A stretch of 63,902 nucleotides of DNA, filler included, from Neolecta irregularis DAH-3 (taxonomy: Eukaryota), in the NCBI GenBank assembly GCA_001929475.1. It is 11 parts of 11 records of this genome, joined end to end, with 100 filler letters (N's around TTAATTAATTAA, not from the genome) between each part and the next. Parts side by side here need not be neighbours in the genome. Positions count along the whole stretch, not along the records: positions 53,298 to 62,271 come from LXFE01000836.1; 10 more parts are not named here. One strand, 5' to 3'. Both the position numbers and the translations under genes were made by a program. The notes below the pieces were generated by a model. It worked only from the letters and a program-made list of their open reading frames with translations. It searched no databases and was not told the DNA's origin. Below, piece after piece: positions 3,080 through 62,748 of the stretch. The first letter of the stretch is position 1. Every line of letters begins with the position of its first letter.

Positions 3080-3335
3080 AAACGAGTTGTCGTTGCTGCG
3101 AATTGTGGTTTATATCGAGATAGAGAACAGAGATTATAGCCAAGATTCTCATATCTTGGCAGCTAGGTATATCCCTTGAGGATTCTCCTATCTTAAGCTA
3201 GAAATATATCCTAGTCTTATTCATATTGAGGTCTCNNNNNNNNNNNNNNNNNNNNNNNNNNNNNNNNNNNNNNNNNNNNTTAATTAATTAANNNNNNNNN
3301 NNNNNNNNNNNNNNNNNNNNNNNNNNNNNNNNNNN

Positions 3336-4877: not shown

Positions 4878-5222
4878 GGCGGGAATAGAAATGAACTTTG
4901 TCTGAGCACTCAGTGTTCCTAATCGACTACTAGCTGCCTTTCTAGCCTTTGTCCGGAGGAGCTAGTGGACGATTTCGTGGAGCCAGAAGTGAGTCAGGGC
5001 GGGCCAGTCGAGGCGGCTGCCACACGGATGGTGCACAGTGCGATGCTACTGCTGGCAACAAAAGCGAGCAGTGACGAGATGCGCAGGAGGATTATTCGTT
5101 TCAAGCGTTCTGCAATTGCGACNNNNNNNNNNNNNNNNNNNNNNNNNNNNNNNNNNNNNNNNNNNNTTAATTAATTAANNNNNNNNNNNNNNNNNNNNNN
5201 NNNNNNNNNNNNNNNNNNNNNN

Positions 5223-10860: not shown

Positions 10861-11226
10861 ATTCAAATTGTTAACATATATAGAATTTGACCAAAGAAGA
10901 TGATGTTCGAAAATTCGTTATTCACAGAGACTTTGAACCAAATGGTAAAGGAAGAAGACATACACAAAATCTCCCAAGGTCCAACGGTATATAAATCTTT
11001 TATATCNNNNNNNNNNNNNNNNNNNNNNNNNNNNNNNNNNNNNNNNNNNNTTAATTAATTAANNNNNNNNNNNNNNNNNNNNNNNNNNNNNNNNNNNNNN
11101 NNNNNNTTACGTTTTTTTTTGGCGAGGTGTCGCGTAAAGGGGGGTGTCGCTTAAATCGGTGTTGAGCTTACTTGAAGGTTACTCGAAGTTGTCTGTGCAG
11201 ACGTCATACATACTCCTCGCTTGTAA

Positions 11227-23500: not shown

Positions 23501-24286
23501 AGCATTCTCTGAACTTTTCCCTGTGTTATTCAGCGTTCTCTTCGGTCTTCCTCAAATCTTATCGTCCTTCCTCATGATAGTTATCTGCTGTCTTACAGAT
23601 GCCGTTGGTGCAATGACAATGGTCTTTGAAAAACCGGAAAGTGATCTTCTCACTCGACCACCTCGGAATATCCACAAAGATAGATTGGCCAATAAACGAC
23701 TCTTGTTCCAAGCTGTTGGATTTATTGGACTCATTGAATGTACATGCTCTATGGCTATGGCCTTCTGGTACATGCAGAGGAACGGTGTTCCGTTCGGTGC
23801 TATGTGGCTTCAGTTCGGAAATTATCCTGATGGTATAACAAATGATCGTGTAAATGCCGTCGTTGCAACAGCTTCCAGCATATACTTCTCCAATTTAGTA
23901 CAAGGCCTTTTATCATCACGTATATACTGATATTTTAGGTCATCATGCAATTCTTCAACCTTCTTGCAACTAGGACAAGAAGACTTTCTATCCTGCAACA
24001 GCCACCTATCTTCAACAAGCGAACGCAAAATCGATGGATATTCCTTGCTATGCTCTTTGCACTTTGCGTTGGTATATCTCATCATTGCAACGCCTGGCTT
24101 ATATTATTAGTGTTTTTCTTTTGTTACATCCCTACTTTTCAGAATGTCATTGGTTCCACTAAAATCCCTGTTGAACATTTCTTTCTTCCTGTTGGGTTTG
24201 GAATGGGATTATTGTGTATTGATGAGGCGAGGAAATTAGCTGTTCGGACTTGGCCAGAGGGCTTTCTTGCTCGGATAGCCTGGTAG
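20598..24286 (+). CDS. Na+/K+-ATPase-like P-type ATPase (fungal ACU-type cation uptake pump)
   Basis: VAFVPEGLP, CSDKTGTLT, FNSKNK, KGAPD, ARTTPDQK and MTGDGVNDAPSLKAADIG motifs; multiple short introns. Confidence 0.88.
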
Positions 24287-24595
24287 GTAATAGGATGTTC
24301 TGGTAGTTAATTGCACGATTATGGAGGACGATGAAATAGTTTGATAAAGAAGATATGAGTAATATATCTTGCAGCATGGTACAGAACGAATTCAAGGTCA
24401 TTAAAAATTTGTCCCCTCATTAACTGCTTCATCAGTAGGATACAAAGCACCAAGGTATAAAGGCTTTGGAGCGGCACATCGCGATGGTCTGCAGANNNNN
24501 NNNNNNNNNNNNNNNNNNNNNNNNNNNNNNNNNNNNNNNTTAATTAATTAANNNNNNNNNNNNNNNNNNNNNNNNNNNNNNNNNNNNNNNNNNNN

Positions 24596-31891: not shown

Positions 31892-32516
31892 NNNNNNNNN
31901 NNNNNNNNNNNNNNNNNNNNNNNNNNNNNNNNNNNTTAATTAATTAANNNNNNNNNNNNNNNNNNNNNNNNNNNNNNNNNNNNNNNNNNNNGGGACCTTT
32001 GAAGAAACATCACATGGAGGAAACTACCAAACCGCCATACAACCTAACAGCCTGCCAAAATATGATTCAATCATACAAGTGCCACTTATATCTAATTTAA
32101 ATCGTCCAAATTTTCTCATGAGCATTCTCTTTAGAAACAATTCTTGCCCCCCAAAAATAAATGAACATTAAAAGGGTAGTAACGTGGGAATTTATGCAAT
32201 CTAATTTCAAGATTTCTAGTTTAGTACGAGCTCTGTGAACTCTAAACAAACAATTGTCTTCATCAAATGGATTTTAGTAAGAAAGGTTTGCAGATACTTT
32301 GATGAGAACAATATCATACCCATATTACATTGAGCAGTTATATAGTCCTTATCCATCTATCGTTCATCATGAACATGAATGAAACGACAAACTGATTTAT
32401 TTTGCGACTGGAACAAGCAAACGGGAATAAATCTCAAAACTAGGTGTCTTTGGAACAAACGTCCATGGTATCGCCTGATTCGCTGCGTTAGTTGCTCCTA
32501 CCCACAAGATTGCTCG

Positions 32517-37346: not shown

Positions 37347-37679
37347 GATCAAGTACTTTCTTTTTCCTTTATACTTTCTCCTTTTTGATTACGAGGTGCT
37401 GGGCTGGTGGAGTCTAATGATGAACTTAAAGTCATNNNNNNNNNNNNNNNNNNNNNNNNNNNNNNNNNNNNNNNNNNNNTTAATTAATTAANNNNNNNNN
37501 NNNNNNNNNNNNNNNNNNNNNNNNNNNNNNNNNNNTGAAATATGCAAGTAAGTAAGTCCAAAGTCCAGACTTGGACTTACTTACTTGTTAGCAAGTCTGG
37601 CCATGGACCAGATGGACCGTATCAAGTGATCTTACCTTGTAAGGATTTACCCCGTTATGAAAATAGGCGCTACAGGATC

Positions 37680-39540: not shown

Positions 39541-40699
39541 TTACCACACTATTTCGTACAATACAACTATGGAAAAATATACGACATATATACTTGATGA
39601 GACTATTGATATAGAAGTCGAACTGCTGGTACATATATATCCGGCTGAACAGGCGTATTGGCGAACCTTGACATTGACGCCTGTCACAACTTTGTCCTCC
39701 GTCCAAACACACCCAATGACTCGACAGTACACTTCTTTTGTAAATCTTGGTTCTGGTAAGCGAGAAGAGGAGGACAGCCGGCAATGTTGCCCCAGTTAAC
39801 TGGATCCGATCCACATTGTTTGATTGCTTGTGCTAAAGGCGCATTAGCGCCGTCATCCCAGCCTGCAGTGAAATCTCCATGAAGACCATAACCTAATGCA
39901 ATAAACCAAACAATCTGTAGATAATAATACCTATTGTGTCTCCACTTGACAATACATAAGTACCCTCCCCATGATAGTCGAACTGGTTTGTTTGCCAAAT
40001 CATCTCGATCATAACTTGAGGAATTCTGACAGGGTGGCTACTGGGACATATCTGTCCATCGTAGCCATCTGTAGAATAAGACACATGACTTCTATGATCC
40101 GCCGAGTTAAGGTTTACTCCGTCCCAGCATTGAGGAAACGAAACTGAGGCTTGCATGAACATCGAACAGGCTCGTTTTGGAAATCCATACTCAGGTCCAG
40201 AGTTACCAGAGCCATCCACGCAAACGAAGTAGACGGCTTTATCTTCTGGACTATTGGACTGGGTCTGACGATCAGGACTTCCGACAATCATCTGAAGACC
40301 ATTTGGTACTGGCATGACATTCCGGCCACCATCTGGATATTTGTAATACGCTCGATGATTTCCTGAGGGATAGAGGGATAATTTTCCGTCTGTGCCTTTG
40401 TGATACAATGAAGGTTGCCTTGATCAATAAGCCATTGGTTTTATTAACAATGCGTACCAATAATTAGACTTGTCGGCCTGTGTATTGCAAGTCGTACAGG
40501 ATGAACTGATTGCGTTTTCATAAGAGAAAGTCTTCTCGAAATGAGAACCACCCAAAACTGTATGCATATGTGAAACATCTGCTTGGCCTGGGTATCTGAT
40601 CGGATCCAGCCTCTCAGTAGTGAGAACTGTACAGTCAAGAACAAAATATCCCGGCACAGCCGAGATGAGAACGAAGACCAAAAGAAAGGTTGAGTTCAT
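39541..40699 (-). CDS. Secreted DUF1996 protein, no WSC domain, hydrophobic C-terminal tail
   Basis: ERLDPI, SHMHTVLGG, DKSNYW, FPQCWDG, CPSSHPVRIP and YGLHGDF motifs; last exon ends SSIYVVYFSIVVLYEIVW. Confidence 0.85.
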
Positions 40700-41534
40700 T
40701 TCCGCAGTACAAAAGGGACAAAAGACTTTTGGATATACTCAAAGGCGGAGTAAAATATTTTTGAAAGTTCTGCTGTCAATTCAAAGCTTTATGATACTTT
40801 ATCAAGCTTTGTCAGAAGGATCGTGTTCATCACGAATTCATGCTTTGAACCAGGTCTTTGCTTCCATTCAGTGATACACACTGTCTTGTTCATGTTGTCA
40901 GCACGAAATCTGCGCCCCGGTTATTGTTGCTTTGCACTCTTGTCGATGATACATTCTTTGACAGAACTTTTACGGGAATGGCGAATGGAATTCGAACTCG
41001 AAACGATCGTCTACTCTTTCGTGACCTAGTTGAGTCAGCAGTCAGGAAAGCTAACAAAAGTCACCTCATCTCGGGCTTCGAAATCAGTAAGAACCACGAG
41101 GAAACTTGTTAGAAAAGACTCTGGTGCTTTGAGATATTTTCAGCGGGTAAACAGAGCCTTTGGAAATTAAGCTTTGAGGACTCAGCGATAATGTGGCCAG
41201 TACGCAAGCTTTCAGTAAAACAGGATTTTGATAACTCGCTGCAACGGTCAGACTAAATGAGTTTAGTGTATCGGGAGCTAACATAGGCGAAGGAATCCTT
41301 ATCAAACTCCATCAAACCACTTCGAATCTGATGGTTTTGACACAGGATGAAAACATAGCACGGTAACCAATTTAACAAGGTAAATATGCTATTCTTTAAC
41401 TGCTTCAGCAAATATGTACAGAATCTATAGGTGTATGATGCAAATCCGTAAACCAGAAAATACAGGAAGCAAAGCGTTGAAAATCTACCCTGCCAAGACC
41501 TTGAAAAGTGCCAGCACCTCTCAATCAATCAAAG

Positions 41535-43250
41535 TCATGATGATAAGCGTAGAAACAAACTAACGTTCCAGTCACCTCCGCAATTGTTTGATTCATCGCC
41601 AGTACATTTGATAGAGCACTGAGCAGAGTCGACTGTATTTCTAACACCGTTCGCAACGTTGTTTCCGCAAGTGCAGATCGAGCCTTGCATTAAACCAGCG
41701 TAAGAAAACCCTAAACAATTATGTTGGCAATTCTCTATTGTCATGTTTATGTCATCAGAAGTAACTGAGGCGATAAGGATTGGCATTCTATTCTCGCTCA
41801 ATGAAACGCAACCGACAGAGATCCAGGGAGATGGAACAGATCCAATTGCAGTAGCTGAAGGGACGTTGACATCGCTTGTGCACGCCGCAGGAACTGTAAC
41901 ATAACTCGTAATCGTAATCGTGGAAGTAGACGTGTAATCTTCTGCATCTGGAATACCAATCGTTGGAATCGCTAGTTGACTAGTTATCGAGTCTGGTATT
42001 GAGGAAGGTTTCGTTGAAATTGGAGTGGGTAAAATGTCCATAGGCACAGCATTGTTGGGTAAAGCTGAAGTGATTTGAGCTGATCCTGCGGAAACAGCCG
42101 AGGAAGTAGATAGAACTACGTTTGGAGTGTTTGTAACTACGGGCATAACTGAAGCCGATGTCGAAATCGAACTGCCGCAAGTCGGTTTTGGACCTGCTGA
42201 CCACAACAAGTTGCATCCCGGAAGTTTAGCGAGACTCGAAGTAAGACCAACGTCTTCACGTATGACTGGTTCAATGGAACACCCACTTTGGGCAGTTTGG
42301 TCGGCGTATTTGTTCAGCGGTGGGCAACCATACACCTCTCCCCAAGTAGAATCGGCTCCGCATGATTTGAGGGCTTGAGCAAGTGGTGCATCTGGAGCAT
42401 TATCCCATGCGGATACAAAATCACCGTGAAACCCATATCCTAAGAGGTCAGTCTCGTTATGTAAATTGAGTATACCTGTGGTATCACCATTTGCCAAAAC
42501 ATAAGTTCCTGCTCCGTGATAGTCCTTCTCGCCAGTCATAAAGATAAACTCATACATCAACTGAGGAACTTTGACCGGATGGGAAGAAGGACAAATATCT
42601 CCGTTGTAGCCTTCCACGGCAAAGGACATATGGCTTTTATGATCCGGAGCTGTTGTTGAAACCCCGTCCCAGCAGGTAGGGAACCAGATCTGAAGTTGAA
42701 TACCTCCGAGACAAGCTTTATCGGGAAACGCCGTCGACTCTCCATCTGCTTGGCCAGCTGAGCCAAGACACATAAAGCGAATAGCCTGGTTATCTGCTGC
42801 AGATGTATTGAAAGTCTTTCGTGCTGGATCGCCGCTGATAACTTGGAGGCCTTTAGGGAAGGGCTTGACATCCTCGGAAGTAGAATATTTGTAATAAATG
42901 CGCGTATTTCCTAGTCGGTAGATCGAGAATGTTCCATCGAGTGCTTGGTGGTATAGTGAAGGAGCCCTCGGCAAATCAGTACAACTTCTAACAAGACGTC
43001 CATACCAATAACTAGATTTGTCTATCTGAGTGTTGCAAGTTGTGCAAGAAGAATTTATAAGAGAATCATAACTGATTGTAGTGCCAAAGTTGCTCGCACC
43101 ACTTATACTATGAACATGCTGAGATGCCAGTCCTGGAGCCACTATTGGATCTGCTCGTTCGGTAACTAATAAACCGCAATTGAGTACAAAATAAGCAGAC
43201 GCTGTCGCTAAATTTGTGATAAGGAAGGTGAGGAGCGACCTATTCAACAT
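41535..43250 (-). CDS. Secreted DUF1996 + WSC domain protein
   Basis: ERADPIV.PG, DKSSYW, FPTCWDG and YGFHGDF; Ser/Thr linker; WSC motifs MTIENC..C, YAGL..G..C.CGN, C...C.GD...CGG. Confidence 0.9.
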   Translation of the reverse strand: MLNRSLLTFLITNLATASAYFVLNCGLLVTERADPIVAPGLASQHVHSISGASNFGTTISYDSLINSSCTTCNTQIDKSSYWYGRLVRSCTDLPRAPSLYHQALDGTFSIYRLGNTRIYYKYSTSEDVKPFPKGLQVISGDPARKTFNTSAADNQAIRFMCLGSAGQADGESTAFPDKACLGGIQLQIWFPTCWDGVSTTAPDHKSHMSFAVEGYNGDICPSSHPVKVPQLMYEFIFMTGEKDYHGAGTYVLANGDTTGILNLHNETDLLGYGFHGDFVSAWDNAPDAPLAQALKSCGADSTWGEVYGCPPLNKYADQTAQSGCSIEPVIREDVGLTSSLAKLPGCNLLWSAGPKPTCGSSISTSASVMPVVTNTPNVVLSTSSAVSAGSAQITSALPNNAVPMDILPTPISTKPSSIPDSITSQLAIPTIGIPDAEDYTSTSTITITSYVTVPAACTSDVNVPSATAIGSVPSPWISVGCVSLSENRMPILIASVTSDDINMTIENCQHNCLGFSYAGLMQGSICTCGNNVANGVRNTVDSAQCSIKCTGDESNNCGGDWNVSLFLRLSS

Positions 43251-44359
43251 CACGACGAAAAAGAAAGTGAGAAATGATGGACAGCTAAGAGAAATTTAAG
43301 GACAGAGAAAAGATCAAAATTCAGAGAAAAGGCTGGAGAAATACCAGTAGTTTTATATGGTATTGGGCTGGTTTCCTTGGTGCAGGCCAGCCACCGCATT
43401 ACTTTGTATTGCAAGTCCTGGATGTTTCACTTCTTGCTCTAGCCAATTTTACTGATCGGCGCACTTCGTAGGTTGCTCCATTTTATATCTTTGTTCTCTG
43501 GCGGGTACTTTTCTGAATCTACAGTGGACGAGATGAGGTTGAGTAGCATCAAAGGCGGGCCTGATTCATCAATGTTTCAGCTGGTAAATTCCCACTGGAT
43601 TCCGCTTTTTCAGCATCAATTAGTGTGAAACCGCTAGCGACAATGGATGTGGGCCAATGTCGCCATTCCATCGCAATTACTTGGAGGTCCGTTTCTGGAA
43701 ATAGCGCACCATTCGATAATACGAATCTGCTCAAATCACACTAGTAGCAGAATCAGGCAATATTGATCTCGTGACTGAATGAATGGCTGGTTCAGGGCGC
43801 CGCATATGTTCCTGTAATCTCTGAAAGGAACATGCACGTGGTGTGATGCAAACTGTGCCTGTGGCTAGTGATTTAACACCGCTCAAAAAAACTGCACATA
43901 CATTTTTGTCCATGTAAAATATTAGGAACGCGTCTGCCGAGCGAATTTTGAATACAGACTCGCCCGATTAGGAACCACTTACTGAGACCAGGATTGAACC
44001 TTTCATGACTGTTTACGCCTATGAGTAATGCTGCCCTGAGACTACATCTTTATATTAATTAAGGTGCGTTAATCTACCCGCTGAACCTTAATTCGATCTT
44101 CACTCCAGGCAAATACGGGTTAATAGAATTATGTGCCAGGTGGCTATCCGATTATCTCATATCGCTGTAGATCATACAAATTAAACTCCCCCGTGAGATC
44201 TGGCACAGAACAAATACAATACAATACGTCAAATCGTTCACGGGAGATCATTGATTCTCCGCGCGATCAAGTCGCTATCGGTCCAACTGATCGTGTAATG
44301 AATCAGTCATAATTTAAAGTAAATACATGAAATGTTGAATCAACCTTGAGACTTCAAGA

Positions 44360-45855
44360 TTAATGCAACGGTATGTACATGTACAGCGATAGCGCCATAT
44401 CCCCGCCACAGATTTCTGTGTCGTCACCAGAACATCTGGCGTCACAGAAAGTTGCACAAACGGGATTGCCGCCACCGTTTTTTATGGTATTCCCGCAGAA
44501 GCAGCTATCTCCATCGAATAGCGCAGCGAATTTGAAAGATGAGCAGAAGTTGAGACAGGCAGAAATGGTTAGTTTCGAGTCGTCTCTGGTGATTCTTTCG
44601 GTTAATACTGGGCCGTTGGTTCCTTGGGTGAAGCAGCCTAGGAGATCCCAATCATCGGCGGTTGATTCGATGTTGGTGGATACAGTATCTCTTCTCTTTA
44701 AATATCTTGAAGCCGGAATATTTAAAGGTTGAGTTGATACTTCAACTTTTACCGCCGCAGACGACGACATTGTTGTTAATAGCGACGATGACGACGACGA
44801 CATCGAAAGTACAATCGGATTATTTCCTAGAAGCATATTGATTGATCCTTTGAGACCCACATCTTCCGTAACGACTTCCGTTTCAATCTTACACCCACTC
44901 TGAGCTTTTGAATCAATGTATTCTCTCAAAGGGGCACAGCCATAAACTTCTCCCCACGACTGATCGAACCCACATTGATTCATTGCCGAGGCAAGGACAT
45001 TTGGATCCCAGCCAGAGGCGAAATCTCCATGTAGTGCGTATCCTAATACATGAGATAATTTCACCAGGATCAAGGCACCCGTTGTATCTCCATTGGAGAG
45101 AACATAGGTTCCTTCTCCGTGATATGGTTGTGTGCCGGTTAACCATATAAATTCGTACATGAGTTGTGGCATTCTATGAGGAAATCCATCAGGGCAAATA
45201 TCACCGTCATAAGAGTTCAATGGAAAGGCAACGTGACTCTTATAATCCGACGACGTGACCGAATATCCATTCCAACAGGACGGAAACCGAATTTGGGCTT
45301 GAATGCCGCCGGGACACGCTTTCCGTGGAAATTCGTTTGTGGTACCGGAGGCTGCTCCGGACGAATCAAGGCACACGTACATCATGGCGCGATTTTCTGT
45401 GTTTGAGGGGTCAAATGTTCTGCGAGTAGTGTCACCAGCGATCATGGCGAATCCAGTCGGAAACGGTTGAATGTCGAGAGCTCCGACAGGGTACTGGTAA
45501 TACACTCGCACATTCCCGAGGGGATAAGCGCTGAGTTTTCCTTCTGGAGACTGGTAGTACATTGTTGGTGCCCTGCTTATCAATTGCGTTGCTAATGACA
45601 ATGGCCGCAATACCAGTACGATGATTTGTCCGCTTGCGTGTTGCAAGTGCTGCAGGTAGCTTTCATGTTTTGCGTGTAAGAGTACGTATTGCCGAATGTG
45701 TTAGCCCCGGCGACAGAGTGAACATGATCCGATAATGCCTCTGGATTCATCAGAGGGTCAATTCTCTCAGTCACCAGCAGGTTGCAATTGAGGACAAAAT
45801 ATCCGGACACCGGCAAGACAGTGAAGAGAATAGAGAGCAGAGCTTGGAGTAACAT
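44360..45855 (-). CDS. Secreted DUF1996 + WSC domain protein
   Basis: ERIDPL, DKSSYW, FPSCWNG and YALHGDF; KRR site before the WSC domain (LTISAC..FC, CFCGN, CSGD..ICGG). Confidence 0.9.
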
Positions 45856-47357
45856 CTTGAAGATAATCGGGCCGACCGGAGTAGATTCAAAGCAATGCAC
45901 GGCTGTTTCTTGGGGAGAATGGGACTGTACTAAGTATTGATCCGACCGGCGATAAAGCAATGAATTTATAGGAAACTTTGTCAACTGCCGATTATAGAGC
46001 GCTTTCTGACTTCTTGTGCGCCACGTAATTCAGACTGTTGAAGGTTACACCATTCAGCTTGTCTCGCTTCAGTTCTAATGACGGGAACTATGTTTGTCGG
46101 AGATCGGCTTTATTCGAAACCGTGACGAGGCAGCATTTCTGGCAACATGGCGGCATGACCAGGCCCAGATGAAGTTTGATGCCGCCCATTTGAGCGAGTG
46201 ACAGGGTTGTCTAGGACAATGGGCAGCTTCCAATGTCGTTCAGCAGTAGTACTATAAGCCCCTACCAGGGCTAGATTCGTAAGCGGATTCTTTGCGGACA
46301 ATTTGACACCTTCTACTCGAGAATGAATAATCAAACAACGACTCCCTGATTTGAGGGGCCACAAGAAAGCAGTATCGCGCCTTGAAAAAAATGCATTCTT
46401 TGTATTGCAAAATGGCGCAACCGCGAGAAAAATTTACCATGTGCCATGACGCGTAGGTCGCAAGTTCCTTTTTAGAGCATAAGCGAACACACGAACAGCC
46501 CAAATCAACAATTGCAGTGGAAGATCTGGCAAGAAAGTAGTTCCAAGTAGAAATCGAGTTTCCCAAAGTGAGCTGTTGACAAGTTTCGCTTTTTGCGGGG
46601 ATTCGCTCGCATAAATTTTGACTTCAAACATTGAATTTAGAACGAGTTTTTGTAATTTAGCGATTAATAGCCAAACATTTGAAAGGAAAATAAGGTTGAA
46701 TTGTAAAACTTGTTTTATTCCAGCAAACTGTTCTCTGTGGAGCAGATGAATGGTTAAAGTTTGTGAAGTCGTGCGACGGAGAAATTACGCAACACTAATG
46801 GAGAAATAAGTCGTCCAAGCTAATGGGGTTGCTCTTGGGCAGGTTCATTTCGGCAGGAAAACCTGCGGCAGGTAGAAACACTGCCGGTCCAGACAGGGGC
46901 GGGTTTTGGCTTCAAGGGGGTGGGAATAACAGCCTTGTGGAGGTTAGTCCTGGCAAATGTCGCCATATCCAAGTCGTTTGCGAGCCGATAATAATGCTGT
47001 TCTACAAAGACGCGCTTTTCTCTACTTCCGGGGTATTGTGCTGCAAACACGCGCTTGACCAGCCTGAATTTAGAACGAGAAAAGGCACTTGCAATCATGA
47101 AGAACAAGGCACTTGCAATCATGCCAACTCTGCGGTCTGGAGAAGAACATGGCAAACGCAAATACACAACCGCAAAACTGGTGTCGGTTGTGGTTTCTGC
47201 ATTGTGCATTTGTGCGTCGTGCAACAGCCGTGGGTCGGCCAGGGTCGTGACGAGGTGGCGTCAGCCGTAGCAGCCACGCCCAGCGCCTCCCGCTTCTCCC
47301 GGCTTCTCCCGCAACCCGGCCCTCACCCGCCGGCTTTCGCTGCTGCTTCCAACCTCA

Positions 47358-48571: not shown

Positions 48572-49282
48572 NNNNNNNNNNNNNNNNNNNNNNNNNNNNN
48601 NNNNNNNNNNNNNNNTTAATTAATTAANNNNNNNNNNNNNNNNNNNNNNNNNNNNNNNNNNNNNNNNNNNNTCGTACCGGGAGTATGGGGCGTGCTGACG
48701 AGTCACCGTATATAAAACGGGGCTTAGCTTAGCTTTTTAACCTACAGCGTGTACTGGAAGGAAGTATGTTGAGTTCTGCAGGTATATAGGTTAGTCCTCC
48801 GCCCCTCTTTCTCCATCAATCCAAAATATATCAAAGAGCAAAAGCACAACTTGAAGAACCCTATCCGCCACAACCCTCCCCTTCACCACCTTCAACAGTC
48901 ACTCTACATCCATTCTTTTCTGTGACTCTGACCATTGGGACAGATTCTGCGCGACAAGACCAAGGCCTTGTTCGTTCTGGTCCAGTCGGTTGAGAACGCT
49001 ATTCCACAGTCCTGATAGGAATAGTGCGAATATAGTTGTATCACCCCACACAACGGTACAGACAGGATCAGTCCTAGAGGACGCCACAAGCTGAAATCCA
49101 AGCCTTTGGATCCCCATATGGAAAGTGTTCTACAGGGACCAATCAGATGATGTGACAGTGGCGCGTGCGAGGACAGGTATTTACGACTAGTGCGCTAGGC
49201 TTAACACTGTATATTAATACAAACAGTTATTACTATTAGCGACCCTCAGCTACTATACGACCTTGAGACTCAGCGGAGTATA

Positions 49283-52158: not shown

Positions 52159-53297
52159 GGCGAAGGGAAACTGACTGGCTTATAGGAAGTGTGAGAATGT
52201 TGCGTTGATTGTATACTCGAGAGGACTTTAGTTGTAATTGGGCAACGTAGTTACTTAGGAAAACAACTAAGCTATCTTGATTATAGGTGAATACCCCTCA
52301 GAGCCGGGTGGAGCAAAACTTATATCGTGAATGTACTTTGCCATTTCCCGTTGCAGGGAGTCGCTTCTGGATTATCCACGCCCCCTTGCTGGTTTGGGTC
52401 TACATTTGAGCCGCTTCTGGTTTTCTACGCCCCCTCACAGGATTGGGTCTTATTCTGAATACCACCCTGGGGTGAACAACAATCCATCCACCCCAGGGGG
52501 TCAAGGTGGGGTGGACATTGGGTGTGCCATAGGCTTAACATGACATTGGTAGGATTAATTAGACTTTTAATTACCAAAATAGAATCCCCTCCAGTCACCA
52601 AGAGACTAGCTTGAATGGATTTGGTAGACTTGATGGTACTATAGAAAAGTAAAACATATTTTTATCGGGGTTTCCCTATCTTCTACACGTTAGTATTATG
52701 TTACCCCTGGCCACCTAACACGACGGAATGGTCATTGCTGGCTGAAAGCTTGATGGATCCCTGGGCAAGGCTTTGCATGAATCTCGACGGACAGGGTCAA
52801 TTGAGTTTTAATGCTAAGAGCTGTGACTATTGTTTCGATACTGCGGGCAACCTGCTTAGACATGATGTCTCAATTCATGGTAATCGATTGCAACCTTTTC
52901 CAAGCATAATATGGAAATATGTTACTTAAATCTTATCCGCAATACACAATACTCCCGGAATTGTGTCAGTCCTCTTACGAACATAGGTAGTGTTTGTAGG
53001 TACAAAGGCTGCATGCAAATATCCCGAAATCACATTCAATAGTCACTCTTGGGGAAATGTAGCGGATAAAATAGCCATGAGGAAACGTATAAGATCTCTG
53101 TCATGCCCACCTAATCTATAATCGATGAATTTTCTCGCCATCCTCGCCGGCTTCGCTTTGACGCTCAGTGTTGCACAACCTGCACCTGCAACCCCATNNN
53201 NNNNNNNNNNNNNNNNNNNNNNNNNNNNNNNNNNNNNNNNNTTAATTAATTAANNNNNNNNNNNNNNNNNNNNNNNNNNNNNNNNNNNNNNNNNNNN

Positions 53298-53999
53298 CGC
53301 CTCCCCCGCACTGACCCCCGCCCAGACCCCGCAGACGGCAAAATCGGCATCGACGGCACCATCCAGTACCTCCACGACCTCGGCCTCAATCTCGAAGAAC
53401 CCGCAGCCCTCGTTCTGGCCTGGAAACTCGCCGCCCCCACCACTGGAGAGTTCCACAAGGCAGAGTTTGTCGAGGGATGGCGATCGCTAGAGTATCGCGT
53501 CCTCCCTGCCCGCTATTCACATATGCAGCTGCGATTCCTTCGACGCTATGAAGAACAAAATTCACACGTTCCGCAGATGGATGCTCGAAGATGAAGACGT
53601 CTACCACAAAGTCTATCTCTTCGTCTTCAGCTTCGCAAAAGTGCAGGGCCAAAAGAGTCTGGGTGCTGCCCCCGCTAACTCCCCATTGACGTTCAGGTCT
53701 TGACACGGCTATAGACTACTGGGAACTATTGCTGAGAACCCGGTTTGACCATCTAGACCTCTGGGTCCAGTTTCTCAAGGAAAAGCACGGACGCGCTATC
53801 TCCAAAGACACTTGGAATCAATTGTGGGATTTCATGAAAACTTACGATAAAACATTTCAAGTCTACGATCAAGATGGTAACACGCCAACAGATTGCATTT
53901 GACAGCATAGGTGCATGGCCAGTACTCATCGATGAAGTACAACCCATAATCCAGCTGTGCTAACACCAGTTTGTCGAATATGCTCGAACGAAAAAATGA
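53298..53999 (+). CDS. DCN1: Defective in cullin neddylation protein 1, 5'-truncated
   Basis: IGIDGTIQYLHDLG, LVLAWKL, GQKSL, AIDYWELL, ISKDTWNQ and GAWPVLIDEFVEY motifs. Confidence 0.93.
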
Positions 54000-54157
54000 C
54001 TTGTGTTGCACCTTCTGTACGAAACATGTGGGTTTAGGCGTTCTTCTTGGTCGTCGATGCATATATACAGGTAGCATCTTCAGTTTGTCCAAGATACATT
54101 ACCATTACTCAAATAGCTCTAGAGTTTGATTGTAAAAGTACCATCTCGTCCACCCGT

Positions 54158-54605
54158 CTAATTATGTCTAAAGAATTTCATGCCCATCCAGTTGATGACG
54201 ACCCAAAGCCAGGCAGTCACACCTCCAGAAAGAACAATTAATATAGGGTAATACCCCGGCATTACAAAAATATCATTATCCGTAAGATCAACGCTCTAAA
54301 CTCATTAAATCCATTTTTCCCAATGTCCCCACCGTCGAATTAAACACATCAACATTCTCAAAAGCCCAATCCCACGCTCCGAAAATGCCGCCAGCGCCAA
54401 TGACAAACACCATCCATGTCAAAAACAGCAGTATCCAGCCCCATTTAACAGTCTCGCTGTGGTTCGTGCCAGTGGTCTGCATGCGAACAAAACAAACGGG
54501 CGAAGGAATATCACTACTATCCGATACGATAACCGGAGGCGGAAGTAAAAGCGACAACGGCTTACGGTCTAGACGAGACAATTTCTTCTTCTGACGGTGC
54601 TTCAT
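54158..54605 (-). CDS. PIG-Y/Eri1-like small membrane protein (putative GPI-GlcNAc transferase subunit)
   Basis: WGWILLFLTWMVFVIG; second exon GYYPILIVL..WLWVVINWMGMKFFRHN. Confidence 0.7.
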
Positions 54606-54686
54606 CTGACAAAAGGTCGCTTCGGACGGCGCATTCGCTGTATGTAGTCTGTGGTGGTGTGGCCCGTGAAACAGTGGTTGCCAGCC

Positions 54687-55901
54687 ATGAATACCCCATT
54701 CTCCCTCCACAAAACGCTGCTTTGTGTATTTTTGCATGGATTCAAGGGGGGAGAAGATACTTTTGGTTCTTTTGCAGAGGTAAGACAAAGCGTACCAAAA
54801 TGAGTGGTAATCGAACCAGCGTCTACAAGTTCTACTCGGCAGCTTTTACCCATCCCTCAAAATTGTCGTGAAAGCACCCATTTTTGATACTCGTGGCGAC
54901 TTTCCAGCGACGGTTTTAAAGCTAGGGGAATGGTAACCGTTATATTCCTCCCTCGTTTAACCATAGGCTGCAAACCCAGGTAGTCGACTTGGAAACTGAA
55001 AATGGATCGATAAATCCCACGGTCAATCCCTCCGTTCGGGTTCTCTTTATATGTCACAGTATGGGAGGATTAGTCGCCGCAGACGTGATCCTTTCAATAG
55101 TCGGCGATAAACCCGTAGAGGGAACAGACACAAAAGTGATGTGGCCGCGTATAATCGGGTTAATTTCATTTGATACCCCATATCTCGGCTTAAACCCGCG
55201 TGTATTTGCTTATGGTACCTTGTTCATAGACGACACTGACTGCAGGCGCCATTGACAAGGGCAAGACATTGTATGATTTGGCCACTCGTTATTCAAGTTA
55301 CGTTCCCGCAGGTCTCTTTTCAGCAAAAGCGGCTCAACCCAGCAAGTCGGCCAGCATGTCAACCAGCAAGTCGGCCAGCATTTCAACCAGCAAGTCGGCC
55401 AGCATGTCAACCAGCAAGTCGGCCAGCATGTCAACCGGCAAGTCGGCCAGCAAGTCGAAATGGGGCACATATCTCGCCGGTGCAGGAGTTGCCGCGCTGA
55501 CCGCCGGCGTGGGCGCCGTAGCATATACACGTCGCGAAGATATCAGCGGAGGTCTAGCCTGGGTAAACTCGCACCTAGAATTTGTAGGAATTCTGTGGAA
55601 AGGACAAGACCTAGCCGACCGAATGAAAAACCTTGTCCAACTAGCCAATATTGAATTCTGCTGTTTTTACACAGTATTACCCGGCACCACTGCAACCGGC
55701 GAACGAACATTTGTCAATCTTCCTAAAGAAGGAAAAGTACTTGCGTACTACACTGAACAAAAGAATTCTGTCGCAAAGGACGAAGTAGAAGCCCACTGTA
55801 CCATGTTTCTCCCCGAAAAGAATCCAGGATACTATATAATGGGCGAACAAGCCTGTAGCAAAATAAGAGAGTGGATTCACCCATGGGTGGATTCATATTA
55901 A
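54687..55901 (+). CDS. DUF676-like alpha/beta hydrolase
   Basis: VFLHGFKG, nucleophile elbow CHSMGG, FDTPYLG, SHLEFVG and DEVEAHCTMF motifs. Confidence 0.82.
55341..55457 (+). repeat. In-frame 24-bp coding minisatellite (SKSASMST) x4-5
   Basis: AGCAAGTCGGCCAGCATGTCAACC repeated. Confidence 0.92.
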
Positions 55902-56109
55902 TCCATACTTCAATTTCGTACCCATACATGAATTCAAACTAGCTAGGTTACCATGCAACATATATAAAAGATTTCAGAATGTACAAGATCGTCTAGACCC
56001 ACTGGACCGGTCTATGGTCTGTTTAGACGGACCAGACCAAGGCATCCAGTGGTCCAGGCCGACCAGACCAAGGGTCTTGGTCGGTCTGGTCCGATCTTTG
56101 CTGTTTACA

Positions 56110-56284
56110 GTAATGATATACTCGGAGTATATATTACCAATGCAGTGGGTCGTGTAGAATGACACAAGGTCAATTAGATCTAACCTATCTTATCTTAGAT
56201 TGGTTTGTCTAAGCTCCAAGGTCCATTTATCTTAGATTAGGAATATAACCTATTCTTATTTGTAACCGAGCTTCAACACTTACA
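56110..56284 (+). mobile_element. Solo LTR (family A), degenerate
   Basis: 5' hairpin; CTATTCTTATTTGTAACC; ends CACTTACA. Confidence 0.6.
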
Positions 56285-57556
56285 TTGCAATTTACAAACA
56301 ATAAAAAGAAGGTACACAGTAGCTATCAAAAATCTTCAACTTGGAGCAGATCCAGTCAGCTTCGCTCACCAAGTGTGATACCAACATCATGAAAGTTATA
56401 TTTGCCTTTGGTTTTCTCTATTCCTCCAGGTGCCTCAGATTCATTTCCCCCAATAACATTCCATATCATCGCAAGATAGGCATGTTGAAAAAAAGGGTTC
56501 TTGGAAATTTTCCAGTTATTGGGGTGAATGCCATATAACAACCCGTTGAGATAAACTTGAATAGCAAAGTCGGGATTTTCTTCAAATCCGTACGTTCCAG
56601 GATATATTGAGCGAAAGTGAAACTCTGTATTGCTCATATTATCAGAGAGTCGAGATATTTGATCCTTTTCCTTTGACGAAAATTCGAAGCCGACAGAAAA
56701 AACAATGGTAAAACAATTCCACTCTGTTCTGTAATCGAATAAAATATAAGGTTTCTGGAGTGGTTCATAAAGCTTATATCGGGCATCCCACAGATTTTCG
56801 TCAATGTCTTTACTACCTTGGTCGCATTCCTTGAGGTTGCCTCGTGCTTTTCCAAGCTTAAAAGTCGCAAGGATCTAAAAGCCCATGGCCCGTCCCCAAC
56901 ACTGTGTTAAACATGTTGAAATTGAATGAAAAACTCTTGTAGGATCTCTAGCCATGTATTCTGGATTCTGTATACTTTAATTGGTCTGATAATAAAGGAT
57001 ATAACTTGTGGATTTCACTGGATAAGTTTTGTAACCTATTTATTCTCAAATACTCTAGTGTTGCAGTTTTAATTCAAGCTGCTATTCCTCAAGTTTGTGC
57101 ATGAGATGGAGGATGTCATTGCATATCCAGCTCAAGGATCTATTGAACAAGGAATTTTTCTTGTGTTGGTCTTAATTTATGTTTATTTTCGTGGCTGGTG
57201 TGGTGATTTGTGAGACGTTGGATGCACCAACAAAAGTGGAACACTGGATTTCATATACAGCTGCGGCTGCTTTTTTAGAATTAAATCTTGCATTTTCTAA
57301 ATCATCCAATTGTACCATTTGCTCATTAGTCTCCATTTTTAATCGCTGGTGTTGGAGAAATTTAGGCTTTGGGAATTTATATTTTTTTCGGCAAGGTGTT
57401 AGAAGGAGGGGGGTGTCGCATCCTACGCCGCCGAGCTTACTCAAAAATGATTTCCCAATTTGAACAATTTCTCAGAGAAGAGCGCCATTTTCTAAGGAAT
57501 GCTAGTTCGCTATAAAAATACAAACTTAGTTCATATCTATTCTTTGGCATAGTCCG

Positions 57557-57744
57557 TGTAAGCTATGCGCTTAGAAGTACAATAAGACCAAGTGTTATAG
57601 CTAGCCTAAGTATTCGTACTTCTTACAAAGGGACATACCTAGCCTAAGTATTCGTACTTGGCTAGGAATATCTAACTTTCGAATTTATATAGTTCCCACA
57701 TCTTGCCGTATTAGTAAGATATACCCTTTGGGTATATCCTTACA
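57557..57744 (-). mobile_element. Solo LTR (family A)
   Basis: TGTAAG...CTTACA ends; GTACAATAAGAC motif; internal duplication of CTAGCCTAAGTATTCGTACTT. Confidence 0.7.
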
Positions 57745-57786
57745 GAATTCTTCTATATGGAATATAAAGTTTTATATAACAATCGA

Positions 57787-58810
57787 CTAGAGGTGTTGAA
57801 ATGCCGGATCTAGAAATAAATACAGTTTCCATAATTCAATTTCCAACAAAGAGGCAACCAAAGGCTGAAAAGATGCCCGTTCAATTGCATTTTTCCAAGT
57901 CACTCGTAATTTCGAATCCAAAGGTTGACAAGATTCGCGGTGAGGCAAGAGAATTTGAAGAGGACGCAAATATACGAATCCGATTTGTGTTCTGAGATGG
58001 GTATTTGCAAGGATACTATTCTCCGCGAGTAAATTGACTAGAATGCACAAGATCGCATCGACTAGATGTACCGGCGTCGATTTTGAAAGGAGGGAAGAAG
58101 ATATTGATAATGAGAAATGAGTCGCAAGATGGATTTGCAAATGATTTAATTCTTCAATATTAAATTGATTCGATAAAAGTTGAATCATATGTGTATAGAA
58201 TTCAAACAGGGCCGAAAGAACATGTTTTTCCTCCTCGTCTTTGATGAAATGGAAATCAAGCGACGAGAATAAATCCCGAGTTACTTTATCAAATAGATTG
58301 GAAAGTAGAGAGTCTGATGAATTGGCGTCTAGATATAAAGATATTTGAGTCGAAGTGTCTCTTGTGATATGACGTATCACTGTAACCACTTGAGATACAC
58401 TGGACGCAAGGCGTAGAGCGCCGACAGATGGTACAAGTCGCTGATACTCTTCATGCGAAATCGCGATAACCGGGGGTTCAGAAGGGGAGACAGTACTAAC
58501 TGAACTCGGGGGTGTTAAATCTTCATTAGGGTTCATTTCAGGGACTTTAACAATTGCATTTTCAAGTTCTTTAACGCGAGTTTCAAGGGCGGACACAGTC
58601 TTGTCCAGGGCGGTGAATTTGTCTCTCCAGAAACTAGGATTATATGCTTTGCGCAATGATTGTATGTAATCTGTAGTTTAGCTTGACAAGATGCAGTAGA
58701 GACCTGGGATAAGAAGATCTTTTGGTTTATGCTTAATGAGGACGAGAGCCTGATCTGTTACCTTTGTTTACAGCGAATAATACAAGAGCCAGACGACGGA
58801 TTTCAGACAT
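57787..58810 (-). CDS. rec24: Meiotic double-strand-break factor Rec24/Mei4-like
   Basis: Splicing introns 58750-58783 and 58671-58703 gives MSEIRRLALALVLIKHKPKDLLIPDYIQSLRK...FWRDKFTALDKTVSALE, which matches the Mei4 N-terminal signature LALA..I+.KP....+Y...L plus a W-led coiled coil. Confidence 0.7.
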
Positions 58811-58890
58811 GGAGGTTGAACCCTTCCATAGATTCTACTATTCTTTCATAAATACATTATGCAATCACCAATCACCTCTTCTAATAACAA

Positions 58891-59895
58891 TCATCTACTC
58901 TGCAAAAGCCGTCCATCTGAATCTCGATGCGACCCCAAAAACAATAGCAAATACTTCAAATTAGGTAAAGTATGTCTCAAATCTGCAATTCGTAATGTAG
59001 ATGCGGATAACAACTACAAGTCAATCAAACGTGTAAAGCAATAGAATTTTCCTGTTCGATATTCTTGTTTAATAAGTACACTGCATATTCGAATCTCTGC
59101 TGATCTACATGTTTTTCAAAGAGCGGGAATCTGGGGAATAAGTTTGTAGAAGGAAAAAGGGATCTACGTTCGCTTGGTTGTCATTATAGTTATTGGATCT
59201 TGGATACTGGCATGACCAGAGAGTGGATGAATAGGGTATCTCAATGGAACCTCTAGGTAAAAAGCCAATAAATAAACGAGATGGGCGGTAAAGCCGAGAG
59301 CTGCAGCAACTATTTCTGTATCGTGATCGATGAAAACTGAATTCGGGAGAAAGAGGCCACGGATTTTGAAATGGAGAGGAGAATGTGGGATCTATATGTA
59401 AGAGGGAAACCGAGGGAATGTACTGGATCGATGGGGTAAATGTCTGAGAGGAGATGTACGATTCTCTTGCGTTCGTGGATTAGTATAGTTGAGATTTGAG
59501 ATTTTGTTTTTTTCCTGTCAGATAGGGTGTGGCGAGCCTGGGTGAGATGGTCTAGAGTGGAGAGTTGGATACGGGAGTCGTGGGCCATTGCGTCTCGCTC
59601 GCGGGCGATGGAAGCACGGAGAAGCTGGATGTCTGATTTGCGGGATTGTATCTGTTGTTTTTGGCGGGCGATGGCAGTGTGCAGCGAGGCTAATCGGGCG
59701 CGACGGTGGGAGATGCGGCGGTCGTAGACGAGAGCATGGGAAGAGTCGCGGAGAAGGGCGGCGATGGAGTCTGTGAGCGAGGCGGTAGCTGAGAAGGAGT
59801 CTGCCAGGCATTCAGAGAGGGCGTTGAAGCGGAGCAGTGAGTGGTAGGACGAGGATTTGCGGATCTGAGGGTAAACGGCCAGGGCTGCTTGGAAG
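58891..59895 (-). CDS. UVRAG/Vps38 (Atg14-family) PI3K complex subunit; start codon not found
   Basis: Coiled coil, IYPIDP, IRGLFLPN, AAALGFTAHLV, YLEVPLRYPI, FPLF, RFEYAVYLLNKNIEQ and DLRHTLPNLKYLL motifs. Confidence 0.85.
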
Positions 59896-60095
59896 GAGGA
59901 GTGGGATTGGAGTGTGATTAGATTGGGGAGTGGGATGGAGTGGGGTTAGATTAGGGAGTGGGATTGGATTAGATTCTACTCTACTACTCCACTCTACTAC
60001 ACCACTACTCCACTCTACTACTCCACTACTCCACTCTACTACTCCACTCTACTACCCCACTACTCCACTACTCTACTCTACTCTACTACTCTACC
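59895..60095. repeat. Bipartite low-complexity repeat: (GGAGTGGGATT)-like then (CTACTACTCCACT)-like
   Basis: Visible directly; base composition flips at about 59975. Confidence 0.9.
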
Positions 60096-60098
60096 CTA

Positions 60099-60509
60099 AT
60101 GAAACCACTCCAAACACTCCATCTCTACCGGCATCTGCAGACTCAGCAGATTATCGTGTCCCTGCGCCTGCCGCTGCCCTCGCCGCGCCCATCCGCCGGC
60201 ACGCCCCTGCGCAAAGATCACTGGCTACCCCTTGTCCACGCCCGCTTCTCCTCCCCAGACCCCGCCCGCGCCGTCTACGACATCCTCGCCCTCTACCGCG
60301 CCCGCCGCTCAAAATCGCTGAAAACACTCCCGCACTGCTCCATCCCGCACACCGTCGCAGACCTCGCAGACGCCCTGCACATCGTCACTGCCCCCGTCGA
60401 TCTCCTCTGGGCCTCTCCCGACGACAAGCTCTATGCCCGCTCATGGCCCAAAAACGCTCGCCATCTCCCCCGTACACTCGCCCTAACAAGGGGATTCAGA
60501 CTCGTATAG
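60099..60509 (+). CDS. MHR1: Mitochondrial ribosomal protein mL67/Mhr1
   Basis: LYRHLQTQQIIVS, LRKDHWLPL, TVADLADAL and W..PDDKLYARSWPKNARH motifs. Confidence 0.8.
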   Translation: MKPLQTLHLYRHLQTQQIIVSLRLPLPSPRPSAGTPLRKDHWLPLVHARFSSPDPARAVYDILALYRARRSKSLKTLPHCSIPHTVADLADALHIVTAPVDLLWASPDDKLYARSWPKNARHLPRTLALTRGFRLV

Positions 60510-60521
60510 ACTTGTATTATA

Positions 60522-61201
60522 TCATTGGCCTTGTATTCTTTCCACATTCTCCCGCAAAAGATTCTCCAGCCCCGCAAAGCAGTTTCGCAGCACCCGCAAA
60601 TGGTACCGCAGTCGCCATTCCCTTTGCTCCTCCACCTCGCCCAGCACTCTCCCCCAGTCTCCTCCTCCTAGCTTCTCATAAAGTTCCCCCTTTTGAACAT
60701 AATACTTGATCGTCTCTTCGTGATACCGGTGTTGCAATGCTTGCGCACTAGTCAGCTGAGAAAGTAAGTCTGTGCTCAGCATTAATCCTCCCATTTATAT
60801 ACCCTCAACCAACTCGCATCCCTCCGCACTGGCACAACTCCCTCAGCTTCCAAAAATTGCCTGGTTGCATACCTTGATCCCCGCATATTCAGCCATAACT
60901 TGAGATCGCAGCTCAAATCCGTGAGACTCTGATACTCCAATTTTACAAACCGCCCCAAATCCTCAGCCCAAATACTCTTTTTCCCTTCTTCCAACTTTCT
61001 CTTTTTCTCACTGGGTATAGATTCACTTTTCGCTTCTACACCCCCACAATCGTCATATTCTCGAACCATCATATACAGCAACTGTGCTTTCTTTGGTAAA
61101 ACATCTCGAATAATATTCATTGCATATTCCACATGGTCCAATTGCAGCTTTCGTATACCTAAGGGAATACCAGCCCCTGCCCTCCTTCGAGAAAACATCA
61201 T
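60522..61201 (-). CDS. Divergent proteasome activator PA28/REG (11S)-like protein; start uncertain
   Basis: VKLEYQSLTDLSCDLKLWL and IKYYVQKGELYEK..DWGRVLGEVEEQREWRLRYHLRVLRNCFAGLENLLRENVERI follow the PA28 helix 2-4 pattern; predicted introns 60829-60872 and 60770-60802. Confidence 0.7.
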
Positions 61202-62205
61202 TGTAGTCGTTGTGGTATTAGAACGTAATGACACTAGTTTTAGACGTATTTCTTATATAAGCACACATCATTCAGTACAAACAAATCATTCATCAGATTT
61301 GATTCGATAATCCGGGTAGAAATACTCATACAAATAACAATATTCAGTGGCTGTGCGGCAGGATGTTCACTTACCATGGGATGAATATCTTGTTAAAGTA
61401 TCAAAAAACCGGAAATATTTTTATTCCTAGCAATAAATATTGGAAAATGTGATATCAACTACGAGATTCCTTGACTTTTGTATAGTCTGGGGATTGATGG
61501 CTACTTTGTTTGTCACCGTAGAAAAGCCATGACCAACCCTAGTTTGCCCGCCGGGCAACGTTTAAATCAGTAAAAGTAAGAAGATAAAAAAAGGAATACA
61601 TCAATGCCTAAGCTTCCATAACTACCTAAGATGATTCCCCAGTGCCCCACATACTCCCGATAGCAAGGATACTCTATGAAACGAGATTACCAAAATGATG
61701 AAGCTTCCAACCAGTACGATAGGCTAGTGATATGCAGGGGCAAGGAGGCAAGGTTTGAGGTGGGGTTGAGGATAAACATTCCATATTGAGGATAAGTGAG
61801 CGAACAGAAAACGGACCCGATAGGTTATAGATGATTATTCCGAATGAGAGTGGATAATTGAAAAGGGATTAAAGGGTGTTATAGTATGACTGACCGTTTT
61901 TGGTGAGGATGAGAAAAGGAAGGTGGTTTTGTGTAAATTGATTATAAACATAGTTACCTTCACTCAAAGTAGCCTGCCTCACTATCAACGTACAAACGTA
62001 AGGCGACGAAAGGAAAACCTGAAGGGTCACAAAAACCACTCTCAACATACATGCAAAATGTAAGTCCCATTAGCTATTCAGAGAATCACTTGCAGGAACT
62101 GTAACAATCTTGATGTCTCGAAAATGGTTTCCCTCGCGAATTTTCGATAATAGAAATTGAGCTTTAGTAGGACTCAAGTTCTTCTCATATACTTCAGAGA
62201 GTACT

Positions 62206-62271
62206 TGTAAGTGATCGCCGGAAGTACAATAAGACTCGGTTTTATATCTAACCTAAGTGCGGGAACTTCTA
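62206..62271 (-). mobile_element. End of a family A LTR, cut by the contig end
   Basis: TGTAAGTG...GTACAATAAGACTCGGTT. Confidence 0.6.
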
Positions 62272-62435
62272 NNNNNNNNNNNNNNNNNNNNNNNNNNNNN
62301 NNNNNNNNNNNNNNNTTAATTAATTAANNNNNNNNNNNNNNNNNNNNNNNNNNNNNNNNNNNNNNNNNNNNGGTTGGTGGTGACTGTGGCGACCCGGGGA
62401 TTCGCGATCGTATGGGGACGTTCGAAGTCCCCACA

Positions 62436-62748
62436 GTTATCAATCCATAATTCTTTCACAGACTCGTAGCTATTAGCAACAACGACTCTTTTCATCCCCA
62501 GTCGCATTTGGAAAACAGGGCCAAGCCTCTTTTCCGTAGCCCAGATTTGGAGAGCGGATGCCGGGTCGCCTCTTAGCTGACGAAGATTACCGATGACTGG
62601 CCATCCATGAACTTCTGGAAGCCCTTTAATCTTTGGAATTTCTGTTCTATCGAGGATTTTCATCAAAATATAGAGTATCGCAGCTGTGATGAGCTTCAAT
62701 GAACGATGATAAAGTACCAGCGATAGCTATGTTGTCTACGGCAATCAT
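62436..62748 (-). pseudogene. 5' part of a second CYP504-like P450, interrupted after WIDN
   Basis: IPKIKGLPEVHGWPVIGNL...LGPVFQMRLG.KRVVVANSYESVKELWIDN aligns with 33910-34215 and shares its first intron position; homology stops abruptly at 62436. Confidence 0.75.

Follow-up and report, generated by a model that had tools for sequence, protein, structure and literature searches.

A PA28-derived gene of Neolecta irregularis predicted to lack the canonical activation loop and the proteasome-docking tail

We describe a gene on the minus strand of Neolecta irregularis DAH-3 (61201–60522 in the window, by which we mean the whole 63,902-nucleotide stretch of DNA analysed) whose predicted last exon encodes 83 residues which sequence comparison shows to be homologues of PA28 helices 3 and 4, with PA28 gamma as the closest match. 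As judged from sequence scores, this likeness is real though distant, and beyond chance. The canonical activation-loop motif and the docking tail are both absent from the predicted product. Because these two defining features of the 11S activators were not found, we classify the gene as PA28-derived rather than as a member of that group; it probably represents a PA28 relative that has been repurposed or is decaying, with no working activator function.

The gene lies on a draft contig of 8,974 nt (53298–62271). An ATG at 61201 opens the upstream ORF, which is 156 codons long when measured from stop to stop, and 109 codons separate this ATG from a donor (AAG/GTATGC) at 60872. The second ORF (60794–60522, minus strand) ends in ...ENVERIQGQ, followed by TGA at 60524–60522. 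Joining the two ORFs requires at least one intron, as stops are present in all three frames between approximately 60810 and 60780. The predicted product has about 193–203 aa, depending upon the splice model. The frame of the last exon was not favoured by codon usage in a simple frame test, which is uninformative. The proposed features are as follows:

60873–61201, minus strand: exon 1, 109 codons plus 2 nt, encoding MMFSRR...KLWLNMRGS, with donor AAG/GTATGC at 60872
60829–60872, minus strand: intron 1 of the micro-exon model, 44 nt, GTATGC...CCAG, from path enumeration
60838–60872, minus strand: intron 1 with its alternative end at 60838, 35 nt, ...GGGAG; in model B intron 1 runs to 60775 (98 nt)
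60803–60828, minus strand: putative micro-exon, 26 nt, encoding (S)AEGCELVE(D); 35 nt if intron 1 stops at 60838
60770–60802, minus strand: intron stretch whose removal is obligatory, 33 nt under models A and A2, GTATAT...TTAAT...CACAG
60522–60769, minus strand: last exon including the TGA stop, with PA28_C-like helices 3 and 4, ending two residues past aligned helix 4

The intron habits of this genome were established from the continuity of Pfam profiles across ORF breaks together with candidate scans, which gave seven supported introns. Profile continuity was exact for five of these and approximate for those at 21952 and 7404:

8820–8856: HgmA, 37 nt, donor GTATGC, acceptor AAG, branch A to end 7 nt
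9267–9300: HgmA, 34 nt, donor GTGCGT, acceptor TAG, branch A to end 7 nt
21952–21986: P-type ATPase, 35 nt, donor GTATCG, acceptor TAG, branch A to end 7 nt
23898–23938: P-type ATPase, 41 nt, donor GTACAA, acceptor TAG, branch A to end 8 nt
40457–40419: DUF1996, 39 nt, donor GTACGC, acceptor AAG, branch A to end 5 nt
45613–45573: DUF1996, 41 nt, donor GTATTG, acceptor CAG, branch A to end 7 nt
7404–7369: LplA-B_cat, 36 nt, donor GTATAT, acceptor CAG, branch A to end 6 nt

At 8820–8856 the profile passes from position 150 to 151 without a gap, a downstream CAG being left unused, and at 23898–23938 it passes equally gaplessly from 92 to 93. Introns in the window normally measure 33–45 nt, and the seven profile-supported ones (34–41 nt) are unusually short, so that the two very short introns proposed in the first-pass annotation are normal for this genome. 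A YTRAY box is usual, with its A 5–8 nt from the 3' end of the intron; AAG acceptors are in use, and conservation at donor positions +4 to +6 is loose. The donor hexamer of exon 1, GTATGC, is the same as that of the profile-supported intron at 8820 and of a candidate intron at 20890.

Path enumeration yielded 80 GT-AG paths which leave the PA28-like frame open. The gene model of the first-pass annotation, with two GT-AG introns around a 26-nt exon, is among them: its frame is open and it gives the quoted junction and a product of 200 aa, but it is only one of 80. Three models deserve attention:

Model A (that of the first-pass annotation): introns 60872–60829 (44 nt) and 60802–60770 (33 nt), 200 aa, with the 26-nt micro-exon
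Model A2: introns 60872–60838 (35 nt) and 60802–60770 (33 nt), 203 aa, the first intron having a GAG acceptor
Model B: a single intron 60872–60775 (98 nt), 193 aa, whose TTAAT branch sits precisely 7 nt before the 3' end but whose acceptor is GAG and whose length is unusual

The junction in model A reads ...KLWLNMRGSSAEGCELVEDLLSQL.... Models A and A2 use both good donors, GTATGC and GTATAT, the latter being of the type seen in the supported intron at 7404, and both of their introns are normal-sized. Fourteen of the 26 bases of the micro-exon are G, as compared to 8–27% G in the interiors of verified introns, and its exon/intron composition log-odds of +3.0 bits may be set against a maximum of 2.06 among 47 intron 26-mers. 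Its last six residues score +6 (BLOSUM62) against VSIQEE at the start of helix 3 of PA28 gamma and model B scores -4, on a hand count which is weak. Intron 1 of models A and A2 has no YTRAY box, unlike all seven supported introns, the nearest sequence being CTGAG at 14 or 5 nt before the AG. In their second intron 12 nt separate the AG from the branch A of TTAAT, and a GAG at 60775, which is at the modal distance of 7 nt from that branch A, is skipped. No splice model is free of atypical signals. Read-through (models C, F and G) was rejected because the strong GTATGC donor is bypassed in all three, and in model C the PA28_C match is also about 5 bits lower (22.3 vs 27.7 bits). Since introns here normally measure 33–45 nt, the micro-exon type (A or A2) is our predicted splice, with slightly better than an even chance of being correct. 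Model B, while possible, is a rather improbable prediction, and some other path is a little less probable again.

The evidence for PA28 ancestry comes from the last exon. Tested as a separate piece, its 83 residues matched Pfam PA28_C at 26.8 bits (E 4.8e-6, profile 53–136 of 145), and the 90-aa last ORF matched at 27.7 bits (profile 50–136 of 145), the E-values of the two pieces ranging from 2.6e-6 to 4.8e-6. Both scores exceed the gathering cut-off of 20.9 bits, which bears out the expectation in the first-pass annotation of a PA28 profile match; coverage is confined to helices 3–4 of a profile that spans helices 2–4. A phmmer search of the PDB with the last exon returned eight sequences at E ≤10, the best five of which were PA28. 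These are the PA28 gamma entries 7yqc and 7yqd (E ~1e-3, with residues 155/163–243 of 254 aligned) and the PA28 alpha chains 1avo, 5msj and 7dr6. The PA28 chains carried a bias of 0.0, and the first non-PA28 matches appeared at E 0.5 or worse. Identity to PA28 gamma is approximately 22% over helices 3–4, from a hand count on the PDB alignment. The turn between helices 3 and 4 shows a 4-residue deletion relative to PA28 gamma, and in helix 4 both proteins contain an LRN and an N-x-E-[KR]-I block.

The ESM Atlas neighbours of the last exon are PA28_C clusters, with a first match at 0.91 and PA28_C in all ten of the ten best family-bearing matches. One neighbour, at 0.78, is a 78-member cluster in which Basidiomycota is the commonest phylum and only 15% of the members contain PA28_N. 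AlphaFold2 modelled the last exon as a two-helix hairpin (H3–41/H47–89, pLDDT 76.9). With this hairpin Foldseek gave no match in the PDB at E ≤0.001, a bare hairpin being uninformative, and a wide VIA search gave generic helical hairpins (best Z 7.4) with no PA28 chain among the 50 matches listed.

Exon 1, which encodes the N-terminal 109 residues, is another matter. The PA28 likeness with a helix-2 Trp that the first-pass annotation read into it went undetected by Pfam, by PDB phmmer and in the Atlas. Searched separately from the last exon, it gave no Pfam match at E ≤10, to PA28_N and to positions 1–49 of PA28_C (helix 2) included, whether taken by itself or extended into the intron; neither the whole piece nor its halves retrieved a PA28 chain from the PDB, and it had no PA28 neighbour in the ESM Atlas. 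A single-sequence AlphaFold2 model contained helices at residues 15–50, 64–74 and 77–107 at an unreliable pLDDT of 42.8. A basic KKRK stretch is located between two of the predicted helices. Exon 1 may resemble the N-terminal half of PA28 gamma in its Pro-Lys-Lys kink, its basic KKRK-type insert and its Trp near the end of helix 2, which is a lead only. The proposal that a PA28 fold has been retained is supported, by sequence, for helices 3–4; for exon 1, which is unmatched and poorly modelled (pLDDT 42.8), it gains no such support, and the hairpin searches were non-specific.

Canonical PA28 proteins have approximately 26 residues between the Trp and helix 3. Over the same span, counted up to the TSAQ of helix 3, the predicted product has 14 (model B), 21 (A) or 24 (A2). 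The canonical activation-loop motif occurs in none of the three frames of 60740–60905 and on none of the 80 open splice paths, and what can be aligned to the loop region is one Gly plus the start of helix 3, in the micro-exon models only. The loop had been described as shortened and replaced; absence of the canonical motif holds on every path, but whether the loop is shortened or deleted varies with the splice, as does its length. At the C-terminus the alignment stops at residue 243 of the 254 in PA28 gamma, with two query residues remaining. None of the 23 possible terminal introns has a branch box or supplies a tail-like ending, and no such ending occurs downstream of the stop in any of the three frames. 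The earlier statement that the docking tail is absent is upheld, and the alternative splice restoring loop or tail, which would have overturned it, was found neither among the 80 paths nor among the 23 terminal introns.

Neither exon 1 nor the last exon retrieved a homologue in protein database searches. An exhaustive search of 1.84 billion representatives with the last exon found no orthologue, its single match (P0001, a 627 aa protein with a degenerate repeat of ~30 residues, 10 stretches of which were matched) being judged a compositional or repeat artefact. Two metagenome scans likewise gave no match. As a control the neighbouring Mhr1 gene was used, and it too retrieves only the window's own protein, so these empty searches say little about the rarity of the PA28-like gene. 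Within the window no second PA28_C was found among the 34 listed ORFs of at least 150 aa and the 179 N-free ORFs of 75–149 aa, the latter scanned against Pfam in sets of 150, 28 and 1.

According to Fort et al. (2015, PMC4453063), PA28 is missing from Ascomycota (>100 genomes) and present in Basidiomycota, and Jonik-Nowak et al. (2018, PMC6048556) describe it as lost in all Ascomycota, with PIP30 kept. Our literature search for an ascomycete PA28 found no report, 'PA28' in two Podospora papers being a gene-name artefact. To our knowledge, PA28 function outside animals is essentially unstudied. A 2023 review (PMC10526260) describes the activation loop as invariant in 11S regulators and critical to gate opening, and states that mutation of the C-terminal residues abolishes proteasome binding by these regulators. 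The NLS of PA28 gamma is placed in a homolog-specific insert, the helix 1–2 linker (PMC7915322). PA28 gamma without its last 14 residues is reported to neither bind nor activate the 20S, while still promoting chromatin compaction (bioRxiv 10.1101/716332).

PA28 gamma (REG gamma, PSME3; 7yqc) is the known protein whose sequence best matches the last exon, including the blocks of helix 4, and its NLS linker may correspond to the KKRK region of the window protein. The latter is shorter (~193–203 aa vs 254 aa), lacks the canonical loop and the last 9–11 residues which dock into the 20S alpha ring, and is not detectably similar in its N-terminal half. The nearest functional analogy is the engineered PA28 gamma delta-C described in the preprint, which likewise has no docking tail. 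That protein is a laboratory construct with the activation loop kept, whereas the window gene is natural and has no loop motif either. The Basidiomycota are described as carrying a single-copy PA28 that also belongs to this family (Fort et al. 2015), its last 150 residues being reported as >30% identical to those of other opisthokont PA28 (PMC4453063). Compared to that description, the window protein is detectable over only ~85 residues, at ~22% identity (to PA28 gamma). Family drift is illustrated by two very divergent 11S relatives, PA26 of Trypanosoma brucei and a distant Giardia homologue (PMC4453063, PMC10526260). PA26 is reported to have a working activation loop and to dock by its C-terminus (PMC10526260); neither trait is found in the window protein.

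We lean, tentatively and at somewhat less than an even chance, towards an intact protein derived from PA28, helical and probably oligomeric, which would act apart from the proteasome, without classical 20S docking or gate opening. The gene would then be an intact but highly diverged PA28/REG (11S) derivative in an intron-rich fungus. Exon 1 would supply helices 1 and 2, with the basic, NLS-like KKRK linker between them, and both exons together might form a PA28-like four-helix subunit. Judging from published PA28 biochemistry, a subunit without tail and loop should be unable to dock classically on the 20S alpha ring or to open the gate of that ring. Any function it has would most likely be independent of the proteasome, probably that of a nuclear oligomeric scaffold: the KKRK linker suggests the nucleus, and a proteasome-independent role is possible because PA28 gamma delta-C is reported to compact chromatin without binding the 20S. 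The gene might thus be a natural counterpart of that construct. The roles suggested in the first-pass annotation, a non-activating partner subunit, a dominant-negative regulator or a repurposed heptameric ring, are hypothetical. The two open ORFs, a donor at 60872 with a strong consensus for this genome, and short introns of the usual size argue for an intact gene; the silence of exon 1 in PA28 searches, the atypical signals in every splice model, the codon usage of the last exon, the empty orthologue searches, which bring no sign of purifying selection, and the non-specific hairpin fold searches argue against this explanation.

More specifically, it may be, although we consider this unlikely, that a PA28 gamma-derived ring has been kept and its proteasome contacts discarded, in a lineage that may lie in the Ascomycota, making the gene a natural separation-of-function allele. 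Were this true, the ancestral 11S would have a proteasome-independent job, probably nuclear and able to outlive the activator role, a PIP30 homologue retained by Ascomycota being an example of a partner. Helices 3–4 without loop and tail offer either a snapshot of activator loss or evidence of a second, proteasome-independent function, and the human delta-C result, as reported, suggests that the second option is possible.

Decay offers a different account, in which PA28 function has been or is being lost and the gene is weakly expressed, silent or non-functional. Both proteasome-contact elements are gone, every model has unusual splice signals near the former loop, codon usage in the last exon is atypical, no orthologue was found among the 1.84 billion representatives, and loss of PA28 in the Ascomycota is reported (PMC4453063, PMC6048556). 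On the other hand, the ORFs are still open over 109 codons of exon 1 and 83 to 90 of the last exon, the start codon and strong donor are retained, and neutral decay would erode a helix 3–4 signature such as the one which here exceeds the Pfam cut-off. The missing orthologues also weigh little, as the Mhr1 control found only itself. We regard a relic as possible but doubtful. That the protein is still linked to the proteasome, either as a non-docking subunit in a mixed ring with a canonical paralogue or through a non-canonical 20S contact, seems less probable. The mixed heptamers that PA28 alpha and beta are reported to form (PMC10526260) are a precedent, and a canonical paralogue may lie beyond the window; but among all window ORFs of at least 75 aa there is a single PA28_C match, and ~22% identity over helices 3–4 makes conserved subunit interfaces doubtful.

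It is very improbable that the gene is unrelated to PA28 and that the likeness is that of any charged helical hairpin. True, the match is limited to 83 residues and 27 bits, fold searches gave generic helical hairpins only, and the N-terminal half is without PA28 signal. Against this stand E-values of 2.6e-6 to 4.8e-6 with a score above the curated Pfam cut-off, the five PA28 chains heading the PDB list with bias 0.0 before unrelated proteins begin at E 0.5, PA28_C in ten of the ten best Atlas family matches, and the two helix 4 blocks, LRN and N-x-E-[KR]-I, present in both proteins. A canonical activator masked by errors in the gene model or in the assembly is the least credible of the explanations. 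The contig is a short draft piece (8,974 nt) and the splice is only predicted, but the loop motif occurs in 0/3 frames of 60740–60905 and on 0/80 open paths, no tail-like ending is present in the three downstream frames, and 23/23 terminal introns are without a branch box. For the present sequence, this explanation appears largely refuted.

Downstream of the PA28-like gene, on the opposite strand, is the convergent gene which the first-pass annotation called MHR1; Pfam confirms the family (30 bits). This gene (60099–60509, plus strand, stop at 60507–60509) encodes 136 aa, is GC-rich relative to its surroundings and shows no word-sharing relative in the protein database besides the window's own copy. 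With only 12 nt between its stop and that of the PA28-like gene, the 3' ends of the two transcripts necessarily overlap. The Mhr1-like gene is immediately preceded by two tandem-repeat arrays (59898–59972 and 59976–60091), the units of one being of the GGAGTGGGAT type and those of the other of the CTACTCCACT type, which are roughly mutual reverse complements. They are adjoined by a minus-strand ORF with a sub-threshold match to ATG14/Vps38.

The gene content of the window is fungal, comprising Mhr1, Pop3 (Pfam 22.9 bits vs a cut-off of 22), three DUF1996(+WSC) genes, P450s, argonaute, HgmA and GH17. Pop3 and Mhr1, taken with the very short distance from branch to AG in the introns, may point towards the Ascomycota. 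Scanning the window for Rfam families and for tRNAs gave no match. The window consists of joined contigs, the linkers being made of 44 N, 12 bases and 44 N, and some 10-N gaps are also present. In the linker at 62272–62371 the 12 bases are TTAATTAATTAA, which places stops in all six frames. The joins include 1150–1249, 3236–3335, 5123–5222, 11007–11106, 24496–24595, 31892–31991, 37436–37535, 48572–48671, 53198–53297 and 62272–62371, among others, and a P450 gene at approximately 62372–62726 is cut by a join. As the contigs were joined artificially, synteny beyond contig 53298–62271 is meaningless. Three DUF1996 paralogues lie in a row at 39896–46029 on the minus strand; two of the three carry a C-terminal WSC domain, and two of the three have an intron at a common position, at profile ~49–50.
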